This document shows, one piece after another, positions 10,894 through 12,652 of a stretch of DNA of 32,000 nucleotides (the stretch's first letter is position 1; every line of letters starts with the position of its first letter). Under the pieces are notes generated by a model. It saw nothing but the letters and a program-made list of their open reading frames with translations, was not told the origin of the DNA and ran no database searches. The DNA comes from Vibrio alginolyticus NBRC 15630 = ATCC 17749 (GTDB lineage Bacteria > Pseudomonadota > Gammaproteobacteria > Enterobacterales > Vibrionaceae), in contig NC_022359.1 in the NCBI RefSeq assembly GCF_000354175.2, positions 90,001 to 122,000 of the forward strand. The letters are read 5' to 3'. The position numbers were made by a program, and so were the translations under genes.

Positions 10894-12652
10894 GTTTATT
10901 TTCCTCAATCCTTATTGGCTTTTGGGGCTCATCGTGATCCCTATAGCACTCTTGCTTAATCACAAATTTAGAGCCCAAAAGTCCACACTGATTGCCCCTC
11001 ACCTATCGCGGATGCTCGGACAAAACACGCAGTCTAAGCATTACTTCACTCTATGGGGTTTAGCTTGGGCAATAACTTGCATTTCATTAGCGGGGCCAAG
11101 CTGGCAGTCCAATGCTCGACCAAGCTTTGAGTTAAACCAAAACCGTATCTTGGTACTTGATATGTCTCGCTCTATGTTTGCTACAGACATCAAACCCAAT
11201 CGGCTAGCACAAACACGTTATAAGGCGCTCGATTTGCTGCCAAAATGGAAAGAGGGAGCCACTGGACTTATTGCTTACGCTGGCGATGCCTATAACTTAA
11301 GTCCACTGACAACTGATTCCAGTACGCTTGCGGGCATTATCGAAAATTTGTCGCCAGAGCTGATGCCTTTTCAAGGGGCAAACCTGCCTGCCGCGATTGA
11401 ACTTGCGATCAACCAGTTTTCTCAAGCCGGCACGCAACAAGGCGATATCATCGTGTTAGCGGATGATCTTGATACGTCAGAGCTGTCTCGCGCGTTAGAT
11501 TTAGTCCAAGGTACAAAGTTTCGCATTTCTGTTCTTGCCGTCGGGACTCCTAACGGTGCGCCTATCGCGCTGCCCGATGGCTCTCTGCTAAAAACGGCAC
11601 AAGACACAACCGTCGTAGCGAAAACAAACCTGAAAAACCTACAGACGCTAGCGAATAAAACTGGCGGTCTATTTGTTCCTATTCAGCACACCAACCGTGA
11701 TGTTGAAAACATCGCGGCCTTTACCAATAACATTGGTAGCCAGCTTTCTGCGACCCAAAGCGAAGAAGTTAAAACTGATTCTCGTCTCAACAGTGGCTTT
11801 TGGTTACTGCCGTTGTTACTTCTTCCTGCGGCTTTACTGTTTCGACGCGGCCTGATTTGGATAGTAGTTGCGACTGTAGTCCCAGTAACGTGGACACCGC
11901 ATGCAGAAGCTAATCCGTTCTTAAATGCCGACCAACAAGGAGCGGAACTCTACAAGCAAGGTGAGTATGAACAGGCGCAAAACCTATTTACAAACCCAAG
12001 CTGGAAAGGAGCCGCCAGTTATCAAAAAGGTGACTACGAAGCCGCTATCGAAGCATTTTCTCATGATGCCTCCCTTAACGGCCGCTATAACCTCGCCAAC
12101 TCGCTCGCTCAAAATGGTCAATTAGAAGATGCGGCTGATTTGTATAAAAAACTGCTAGAGGAAAAGCCTAACTTTGAAGCCGCGAAGAAAAACCTATCGG
12201 TTGTAGAAGAAAAGCTAAAACAGCAACAGCAACAGCAACAGCAACAGCAACAGCAACAGCAACAGCAACAGCAACAGCAACAGCAACAGCAACAGCAACA
12301 GCAACAGCAACAGCAACAGCAACAGCAACAGCAACAGCAACAGCAACAGCAACAGCAACAGCAACAGCAACAGCAACAGCAACAGCAACAGCAACAGCAA
12401 CAGCAACAGCAACAGCAACAGCAACAGCAACAGCAACAGCAACAGCAACAGCAACAGCAACAGCAACAGCAACAGCAACAGCAACAGCAACAGCAACAGC
12501 AACAGCAACAGCAACAGCAACAGCAACAAAAGTCTCAAAACGAAGGGAAAGAAGCGCAAGGACAACAGTCACAAAATCAGCAAGATTCTAAAAATAAAAA
12601 GAAAAACAAAAAACGGAACAACATCAACCGCAACGAGATGACAAGCAAGTGA
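10886..12652 (+). CDS. VWA + TPR membrane protein (BatB-like) with a 103-residue polyglutamine tract; the 3' end is apparently frameshifted
   Basis: RBS AAGGAG lies before the ATG, which overlaps the upstream gene by 8 nt. The MIDAS motif is VLDMSRSM. A TM segment (FWLLPLLLLPAALLF) is followed by TPR-like repeats (AELYKQGEYEQA, ASYQKGDYEAAIEAF, NLANSLAQNGQLEDAADLYKKLL). Q103 follows, then a lysine/asparagine-rich tail of low plausibility ending at 12652. Confidence 0.85.
   Translation: MAEFIFLNPYWLLGLIVIPIALLLNHKFRAQKSTLIAPHLSRMLGQNTQSKHYFTLWGLAWAITCISLAGPSWQSNARPSFELNQNRILVLDMSRSMFATDIKPNRLAQTRYKALDLLPKWKEGATGLIAYAGDAYNLSPLTTDSSTLAGIIENLSPELMPFQGANLPAAIELAINQFSQAGTQQGDIIVLADDLDTSELSRALDLVQGTKFRISVLAVGTPNGAPIALPDGSLLKTAQDTTVVAKTNLKNLQTLANKTGGLFVPIQHTNRDVENIAAFTNNIGSQLSATQSEEVKTDSRLNSGFWLLPLLLLPAALLFRRGLIWIVVATVVPVTWTPHAEANPFLNADQQGAELYKQGEYEQAQNLFTNPSWKGAASYQKGDYEAAIEAFSHDASLNGRYNLANSLAQNGQLEDAADLYKKLLEEKPNFEAAKKNLSVVEEKLKQQQQQQQQQQQQQQQQQQQQQQQQQQQQQQQQQQQQQQQQQQQQQQQQQQQQQQQQQQQQQQQQQQQQQQQQQQQQQQQQQQQQQQQQQQQQQQQQQQQQQQQKSQNEGKEAQGQQSQNQQDSKNKKKNKKRNNINRNEMTSK
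12221..12529 (+). repeat. Perfect hexanucleotide tandem repeat (CAGCAA)x51 plus one CAA, in frame and encoding 103 Gln
   Basis: Read directly from the sequence. The period-6 phase is unbroken from 12221 to 12526 (306 nt) with no substitution, then CAA at 12527-12529. Confidence 0.98.

Follow-up and report, generated by a model that had tools for sequence, protein, structure and literature searches.

The 32,000-nucleotide stretch of Vibrio alginolyticus NBRC 15630 = ATCC 17749 analysed here (contig NC_022359.1, positions 90,001 to 122,000; hereafter the window, numbered from its first letter) carries a gene for a membrane protein with a VWA domain and a tetratricopeptide repeat (TPR) region, in which a perfect hexamer microsatellite encodes 103 consecutive glutamines. 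Our findings identify this repeat as a long allele of a known hypervariable polyglutamine (polyQ) variable-number tandem repeat (VNTR) of the genus Vibrio, and not as a new feature. What is new in the window is a private 1-nt deletion, A5 for A6, that lies beyond the repeat. The parts of the gene, including two transmembrane (TM) helices and segments modelled with AlphaFold2 (confidence given as the predicted local distance difference test, pLDDT), are the following.

10886-12652, plus strand: open reading frame (ORF) as read in the window, 588 aa, with VWA domain, TM hairpin, TPR region, polyQ tract and an aberrant K/N-rich end; the V. alginolyticus orthologue of VcpQ/VCA0171/VPA1455
11141-11755, plus strand: VWA domain, about residues 86-290, with the metal ion-dependent adhesion site (MIDAS) motif DxSxS (LDMSRSM); Pfam VWA_2, 5e-13; model of a homologue with pLDDT >90 over residues 86-290
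11795-11893, plus strand: hydrophobic hairpin of two TM helices split by RRG, between VWA and TPR; hydropathy peaks at 301-319 and 310-328, modelled helices at 308-318 and 322-335
11924-12220, plus strand: TPR region, its last (capping) helix continuous with the polyQ tract; Pfam TPR_1/2/16; NCBIfam BatC-like TPR at 347-486; modelled helix 431-460 of a homologue
12221-12529, plus strand: coding VNTR, (CAGCAA)51 + CAA, encoding the 103-Gln tract
12596-12600, plus strand: A5 homopolymer with the 1-nt deletion that shifts the frame; A6 in the 14 other V. alginolyticus loci covering the site
12598-12834, plus strand: end of the linker and conserved C-terminal tail, with two helices and an invariant terminal Trp, in the -1 frame relative to the polyQ tract; stop codon TAA at 12832-12834

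The repeat is the single array that Tandem Repeats Finder reports in the window (12219-12528; period 6, 51.7 copies, 100% matches, no indels, score 620), and a codon count over 12221-12529 gives 103 uninterrupted Gln codons, 51 CAG and 52 CAA, in strict alternation up to a final CAA-CAA. The two methods together bear out the description in an earlier note on this DNA, which had read the tract as a perfect (CAGCAA)x51 plus CAA with not one variant unit. A perfect head-to-tail array of this kind is far beyond chance and identifies the element as a coding VNTR or microsatellite. Its period is a multiple of three and the frame is kept, with full-length products of 643 and 645 aa in two further V. 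alginolyticus loci (L020 and L032, respectively). Hairpin-driven instability, as in the CAG/CTG disease repeats, was considered and rejected: the folding energies of both strands are about those of shuffled sequence, and per 120 nt they amount to -8 kcal/mol for (CAGCAA)n and -6 kcal/mol for (TTGCTG)n, compared with -24 kcal/mol for (CAG)n and -44 kcal/mol for (CTG)n. Two minus-strand ORFs over the repeat (12168-12572 and 12215-12565) were set aside as by-products of a stop-free repeat, in which TTGCTG reads as Leu-Leu.

The locus can be placed through primers already in use for typing. The sequences of the VP2-07 F and R primers for multiple-locus VNTR analysis (MLVA), which give a reference amplicon of 296 bp (PMC4462150), match the window at two sites that bracket the repeat exactly:

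12169-12188, plus strand: match to VP2-07 F, 3 mismatches, chance expectation 0.01
12556-12575, minus strand: match to VP2-07 R, 1 mismatch, chance expectation 0

VP2-07, or VPTR16, has been assigned to VPA1455 of V. parahaemolyticus (schemes of Harth-Chu 2009 and Kimura 2008), and the VPA1455 polyQ tract has 66 residues in strain RIMD and 39 in BB22OP (PMC10734457). Subtraction of 98 bp of flanks from the 296-bp amplicon leaves 198 nt, or 66 codons, which agrees with the 66-residue tract. The corresponding MLVA locus of V. cholerae, VCA0171 (schemes of Danin-Poleg 2007 and Kendall 2010), has gctgtt as its motif, which is AACAGC in reverse complement. Variability is highest at this locus and one other; 19 alleles occur here within the 7th-pandemic clone, there are alleles of 21-26 units, and another study gives 7-24 units. 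The VCA0171-F primer, GCTGAAGCCTTTCGCGATCC, matches the orthologous V. cholerae locus (L030) at 19/20 bases, about 230 nt 5' of the place where that contig enters CAGCAACA; the operon around it is the one seen in the window, and the L030 contig ends within the repeat. Used as a query at 100% coverage, 440 aa of the protein are 80% identical to V. parahaemolyticus proteins and 44% identical (E = 4.5e-113) to the V. cholerae protein P0118, and a scan of species-representative contigs returned V. diabolicus and Vibrio sp. ES.051 at 89-90% identity, with V. alginolyticus and V. cholerae absent from its results; the region from which the query patterns came may be masked in that collection. The window gene therefore shares with its orthologue group the VWA-TM-TPR homology, the operon, the flanking typing primers and the arrangement in which the Gln repeat adjoins the last TPR helix and leads into a linker and a Trp-ending C-tail; in the window that C-tail is present in the -1 frame.

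The run itself has been on record for some time. ProtRepeatsDB (2006) lists TPR orthologues of V. vulnificus and V. parahaemolyticus with tandem glutamine repeats downstream of the TPR motifs, together with a shorter run in V. cholerae. The suggestion in the earlier note that the array could serve as a strain-typing VNTR is correct but describes what is already practice, as the orthologous repeats are the MLVA loci VCA0171 in V. cholerae and VP2-07/VPA1455 in V. parahaemolyticus; in the literature examined we found no V. alginolyticus MLVA scheme on the VP2-07 locus. Nor does its view of the protein as part of a poorly understood MoxR/VWA system stand for this feature, given that the glutamine run has been described since 2006 and that its length was linked in 2021 to adsorption of phage VP1 in V. 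cholerae. At about 50 units the window allele is very long, longer than any of the V. cholerae alleles and than the tract of V. parahaemolyticus RIMD, which has 66 Gln.

The link to phage comes from V. cholerae. According to PMC10734457, which cites Fan et al., the V. cholerae orthologue of VPA1455 is a phage receptor in which a shorter polyQ tract dictates natural phage resistance. Fan et al. (2021), as summarised in two other papers, identify VcpQ as the receptor of typing phage VP1 and describe spontaneous resistant mutants that had lost 14 Gln, the reduced tract preventing capture. We consider it very probable that the window holds the V. alginolyticus allele of a genus-wide hypervariable coding microsatellite (vcpQ/VCA0171, VPA1455/VP2-07), and by orthology the tract would most likely act as a phage-selected contingency spacer here as well. 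In V. cholerae El Tor the VcpQ tract has about 46 Gln, with which the MLVA alleles of 21-26 units agree. VcpQ is said to be capable of forming homotrimers, and shortening of the tract reportedly left its membrane location and oligomeric state unchanged and abolished phage adsorption.

The same hexamer array occupies the same codon position in other species, with 25 units in L001, 20 in L002, 11 in L005, 19 in L007 and 11 in L008, all of them pure, and the 3' array end …CAG CAA CAA is shared by L002, L005, L007 and L008. The comparison across related Vibrio genomes that the earlier note had called for thus returned differing lengths (11-25 units) of pure units, as opposed to an identical-length tract with degenerate ones. 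Two further orthologues encode the tract with other units: a pure 9-mer, CAACAGCAG, in Vibrio sp. YIC-376 (L003, 4333-4500), and a 21-mer encoding QQQQQQD in V. sagamiensis (L004, 4339-4413), where the contig ends inside the array. As judged from these sequences, the repeat is repeatedly replaced at the DNA level while Gln is kept. Because different DNA units all encode Gln at one position, selection would appear to act on the protein, in addition to turnover of the DNA. The non-Vibrio relatives (Pseudoalteromonas, Psychromonas, Colwellia and Glaciecola) carry a long, variable-length Q/D/E/S/N-rich low-complexity linker at this position, without pure polyQ. Two observations on individual loci may be added. 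In L008 the 11-unit hexamer array is followed by another, (AATCAGCAA)n, which encodes NQQ, at about 4396-4500. In V. diabolicus (L002, CCKK01000003.1, 3001-4321) a 1-nt length difference within the N-terminal 440 codons leads to a stop at residue 419, before the 20-unit repeat, and this early stop is either a frameshift or an assembly error.

Within V. alginolyticus, loci were retrieved by exact-protein look-ups with MoxR and BatD. In all of them the tract is pure (CAGCAA)n, and its length differs:

Window: 51 units
L020 = L031 (GCA_900460285.1): 48 units, 0 substitutions relative to the window over 16.4 kb
L032 (CP014044.1, complete 1.8-Mb replicon): 49 units, 0 mismatches in 3.5 kb downstream
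L035: 7 units, 0 mismatches in 3.5 kb downstream; a draft in which the repeat may be collapsed
L022: 10 units; the strain differs from the window by about 0.6%

With 0 substitutions over 16.4 kb, L020 is taken to be the same clone as the window. Copy number thus differs while the flanks are unchanged (51, 49, 48 and 7 units), as is characteristic of a VNTR, with the limit that assembly accuracy in pure repeats bounds all of these counts. The 48, 49 and 51 units in the three array-spanning assemblies of one clone reflect either slippage between stock cultures or consensus error, and the count of 51 is accordingly soft, uncertain by a few units. The expectation of a hypervariable, in-frame array that is still turning over was borne out by these figures for the assemblies of one clone, by the 10 units of the other strain and by the 11-25 units of the other species.

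The repeat also leaves its mark on public data. Five scaffolds (L021, L023, L033, L034 and L036) have gaps of about 100 N within it, the L024 contig stops after 22 units, and Logan contigs extend 27 nt into the array before they end. In a 245-member V. alginolyticus protein cluster, all 15 of the 15 members listed are annotated as 'partial' and end at residues 444-446, at or just before the first Gln codon, and there are large 'partial' clusters of about 445-449 aa for V. parahaemolyticus (1006 members), V. cholerae (378) and V. vulnificus. Among the matches from a collection of 5.8 billion proteins, no homologue has a Gln run >11, and the exact 643-aa (L020) and 567-aa (L022) proteins are absent from that collection; long homopolymer proteins seem to be missing from it or collapsed. 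Short 'full-length' V. parahaemolyticus proteins in the collection have odd junctions and look like collapsed assemblies.

Beyond the tract, the window ORF runs through 40 K/N-rich codons to a TGA at 12650-12652. The C-terminal tail of the family (…DDPEFRRLEAVESARDPSFLIRAQMQLQAQQKQPPQQSQKEW, followed by the stop codon) is open in the -1 frame from 12598 to the TAA at 12832-12834, and every orthologue reads this tail in the frame of the Gln tract, up to the invariant terminal Trp. At the A-run the window reads ATAAAAAG (A5), as against ATAAAAAAG in 14/14 other V. alginolyticus loci covering the site, clone-identical ones included, and one added A yields a 649-aa protein with the conserved tail. 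The placement of the repeat in frame between the TPR region and the C-terminal tail, as the earlier note had it, therefore holds on the TPR side, while the conserved tail is out of frame by a 1-nt homopolymer deletion. A second such contraction lies in the T-run at 4737-4745, with T8 in the window and T9 in 6/6 other V. alginolyticus loci compared, and the gene of a VpsT-like REC+GerE regulator, 222 aa at full length, is thereby reduced to a 201-aa ORF that starts at TTG. L020, identical in clone, is without either deletion. Because the window thus has, within 16 kb, two homopolymers that are each 1 nt shorter than in the other loci, and because each contraction breaks a gene, the A5 frameshift and the T8 run are most likely sequencing or assembly errors and not real mutations in the stock. 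At 12595-12601 the letters T-AAA-AAG look like a -1 slippery site. A ribosome that slipped by -1 at this point would restore the wild-type reading (…NKKEKQKTEQH…), but the likeness is probably coincidental. Programmed -1 frameshifting at this site as a rescue of the tail was judged unlikely, since the second private homopolymer deletion favours sequencing error.

In the 588-aa ORF, Pfam places VWA_2 at residues 88-193 and TPR_1/TPR_2 at residues 400-430, and the MIDAS residues D92/S94/S96 are invariant across 47 homologues. NCBIfam assigns a BatB-like VWA part to residues 15-287 and a BatC-like TPR part to residues 347-486, both far under the family cut-offs (78 against 350 bits for VWA_BatB_Lepto and 41 against 175 for TPR_BatC_Lepto, which are Leptospira-specific 'exception' models). 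By sequence, the protein looks like a BatB-BatC fusion that is a certified member of neither family, and the earlier description of a BatB-like VWA/TPR protein in a MoxR/VWA operon finds support in Pfam, NCBIfam and the neighbouring genes. Over its first 445 aa it does not differ from P0128 (V. alginolyticus NBRC 15630 = ATCC 17749), and other members of the 245-protein cluster differ at 3-5 positions, which places the window in V. alginolyticus and most likely in the type-strain lineage.

An AlphaFold2 model was made of a V. parahaemolyticus homologue 80% identical to the window protein (47-sequence alignment, mean pLDDT 72). In this model the VWA and TPR parts are confident and a helix at 431-460 runs from the TPR cap through the 11 Gln of that protein; the linker after the Q-run is disordered (pLDDT about 30), and two C-terminal helices are confident, with pLDDT up to 90. 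The topology suggested by hydropathy and the positive-inside rule starts with a pair of TM segments at the N terminus and a cytoplasmic loop rich in K/R; the VWA domain follows in the periplasm, then the TM hairpin with its RRG turn, and the TPR-polyQ-tail portion is periplasmic again. This predicted arrangement agrees with the BatA-like BB0173 of Borrelia, whose VWA domain is periplasmic by experiment.

The gene is the fifth of a six-gene operon, in the order MoxR, DUF58, DUF4381, VWA, VWA/TPR-polyQ and BatD, of which the other members are these.

7486-8442, plus strand: MoxR AAA+ ATPase, first gene of the operon; Pfam AAA_3 (9e-63), AAA_lid_2
8426-9382, plus strand: DUF58 protein; Pfam DUF58 (3e-33)
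9420-9896, plus strand: DUF4381 protein; Pfam DUF4381 (2e-36)
9889-10893, plus strand: BatA-like VWA membrane protein; Pfam VWA (8e-23), BatA N-terminal domain weak
12839-14485, plus strand: BatD-like protein, 548 aa, GTG start at 12839, last gene of the operon; Pfam BatD (1e-20)

The exact BatD protein of the window is present in many V. alginolyticus assemblies. The order of a divergent methyl-accepting chemotaxis protein gene followed by MoxR, DUF58, DUF4381, VWA and VWA/TPR-polyQ is common to the window, V. cholerae L030 and the V. alginolyticus loci. Upstream, window positions 1-7200 (which correspond to L020 1-7690) hold two VpsT-like regulators, a HemolysinCabind protein, an ATP-binding cassette transporter, an HlyD-like membrane-fusion protein and a dCache/HAMP chemoreceptor, a region that we take to resemble the V. 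parahaemolyticus cpsS-cpsQ-mfpABC region. On the 3' side of the operon a 707-aa GGDEF protein is encoded on the minus strand (14615-16738). From the upstream regulators and the downstream GGDEF gene, the neighbourhood is therefore one of biofilm and cyclic di-GMP genes.

A mechanism that would account for these observations can be proposed. The length of the array would change in steps of 6 nt, or two Gln, by slipped-strand mispairing at replication, with the frame always kept, and frequent slippage may homogenise the array, which would explain its purity. The alternation of CAG and CAA, with almost no hairpin potential, probably lets a tract of about 300 nt persist where pure CAG/CTG would collapse. 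The protein would be ordered as an N-terminal TM pair, VWA domain, TM hairpin, TPR region, polyQ tract, disordered Q/K/E-rich linker and conserved two-helix tail ending in Trp. Each unit would thereby add two Gln to a spacer that may start as a helical extension of the TPR cap and that separates the TPR region from the C-tail, probably in the periplasm. By orthology with VcpQ, the length of this spacer would probably decide whether a phage can use the protein, making the gene a graded contingency locus under phage selection. The idea that the tract tunes reach is compatible with the phage data. A more far-reaching version takes the polyQ tract as a length-tunable, largely helical ruler that projects the C-tail from an inner-membrane Bat-like complex towards the outer membrane or surface, the window holding an unusually long, exceptionally unstable, phage-driven allele whose length sets both phage susceptibility and the native MoxR/VWA activity. 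At 1.5 A per residue the 103 Gln would extend about 15 nm, or about 0.3 nm per hexamer, and changes of 1-3 units would separate stock cultures of the type strain. We regard this version as doubtful, though if true it would represent a bacterial contingency locus of a rare kind, graded instead of on/off, and a natural case of a prokaryote that tolerates >100 Gln.

Several points weigh against a phage-selected contingency spacer. The equation of VcpQ with VCA0171 is drawn from orthology, and the phage-receptor role would be carried over from a V. cholerae protein that is 44% identical over the N-terminal 440 aa. A tract that is predicted to be periplasmic is hard to reconcile with phage adsorption at the cell surface. 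The spread of 48, 49 and 51 units may stem from faulty consensus calls in a pure repeat, with no biological slippage behind it, and the 7- and 10-unit alleles come from drafts in which the repeat may be collapsed. A neutral hypermutable linker in a disordered spacer, drifting by slippage with no phenotype in V. alginolyticus, would sit well with the variable-length low-complexity linker, without pure polyQ, of the non-Vibrio relatives, with the disordered model after the Q-run (pLDDT about 30) and with alleles of 7 to 51 units in near-identical backgrounds. We nevertheless hold it to be unlikely, as a Gln-rich run is found at the exact position genus-wide despite 6-mer, 9-mer and 21-mer units, which argues for selection on the protein, and as tract length has a strong phenotype, VP1 adsorption, in V. 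cholerae. Self-association through the long polyQ tract, whether as oligomer, coiled coil, condensate or amyloid-like assembly with length setting its strength, appears less likely again. Helices or coiled coils can be lengthened by polyQ that adjoins helical segments, and in eukaryotes long polyQ is prone to aggregate; the continuation of the predicted TPR capping helix into the Q-run and the homotrimers ascribed to VcpQ would be in keeping with this idea. Against it stand the oligomeric state of VcpQ, reportedly unchanged when the tract was shortened, and the existence of strains with 7-10 units.

An on/off switch, in which the tract or the adjacent A-run would frameshift the protein or its C-tail on and off, draws on the out-of-frame tail of the window, where the A6 run is read as A5, and on the T-AAA-AAG at 12595-12601, where a -1 shift would recreate the wild-type protein. 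It is very improbable in our judgement: a 6-nt unit never alters the frame, A6 is present in 14/14 other assemblies covering the site, the second private homopolymer deletion points to sequencing error, and A5/A6 is short for efficient slippage. On/off phase variation by the hexamer itself was rejected, its unit being a multiple of three, and the locus does not class as an on/off contingency gene. We give the least credence of all to an assembly artefact that would have produced or inflated the tract from a much shorter real array. Pure repeats exceeding the read length cannot be sized by short reads, and the 'partial' V. alginolyticus proteins ending at 444-446 aa, the 100-N gaps, the Logan contigs stopping 27 nt in, the two probable homopolymer errors in the window and the 7 units of L035 in the same clone could all be taken in its favour. 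Yet counts of 48 and 49 units come from two independent assemblies of the same clone, one of them a complete 1.8-Mb chromosome, and breaks in short-read contigs are what a long tract predicts. The sister species, moreover, have long alleles by capillary sizing, with about 33 units in V. parahaemolyticus RIMD and 7-26 or more in V. cholerae.

The practical consequences of the findings are modest. The locus offers a ready-made, highly discriminating typing marker for V. alginolyticus, with primer sites at 12169-12188 and 12556-12575. The repeat systematically breaks or collapses short-read Vibrio assemblies, so that the gene is mis-annotated as 'partial' in hundreds of genomes, and the deposited sequence of the window probably has homopolymer errors that create false pseudogenes. 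By analogy, the V. cholerae result suggests that tract length could govern the phage susceptibility of V. alginolyticus, a point of interest for phage therapy in aquaculture. Its tolerance of about 100 consecutive Gln also makes this bacterial protein a convenient natural model for polyQ behaviour.

The findings open no new class of system, and the locus is best described by comparison with those already known. The Bat operon (Bacteroides aerotolerance: MoxR, DUF58, BatA, BatB, BatC and BatD) matches the window in gene set and order, and the window protein likewise has a VWA domain with MIDAS and TM segments, a TPR region, and MoxR, DUF58, BatA and BatD neighbours, whereas here a single protein unites BatB and BatC and adds a polyQ/low-complexity linker as well as a conserved C-tail. 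The eukaryotic polyQ loci HTT and AR likewise have long, in-frame, length-polymorphic Gln tracts that arise by slippage; the window differs from them in its CAG/CAA hexamer, which has almost no hairpin potential and is not pure CAG, in being bacterial and probably periplasmic, and in a variation that appears adaptive or neutral and not pathogenic. With bacterial simple-sequence contingency loci, such as phase-variable surface genes, it shares a hypermutable repeat, a phage-selected gene and population heterogeneity, but its array alters protein length in frame, in a graded manner, and does not turn expression on or off. VP2-07/VPTR16 in VPA1455 of V. parahaemolyticus is the same locus in a different species, with primers that flank the window repeat and a protein that is 80% identical. 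VCA0171 of V. cholerae has the same hexamer in the same gene at the same position, with the same hypervariability in one-unit steps, and differs in having about 7-30 units against about 50 in the window. VcpQ of V. cholerae is the product of what appears, from homology to P0118, the shared MoxR-DUF58-DUF4381-VWA-VWA/TPR operon and a Q tract straight after the TPR domain, to be the orthologous gene; PMC10734457 describes VPA1455, the gene to which the VP2-07 primers link the window, as the orthologue of VcpQ. Compared with VcpQ, the window tract is about twice as long, at 103 Gln, and the window copy is frameshifted before the conserved tail.

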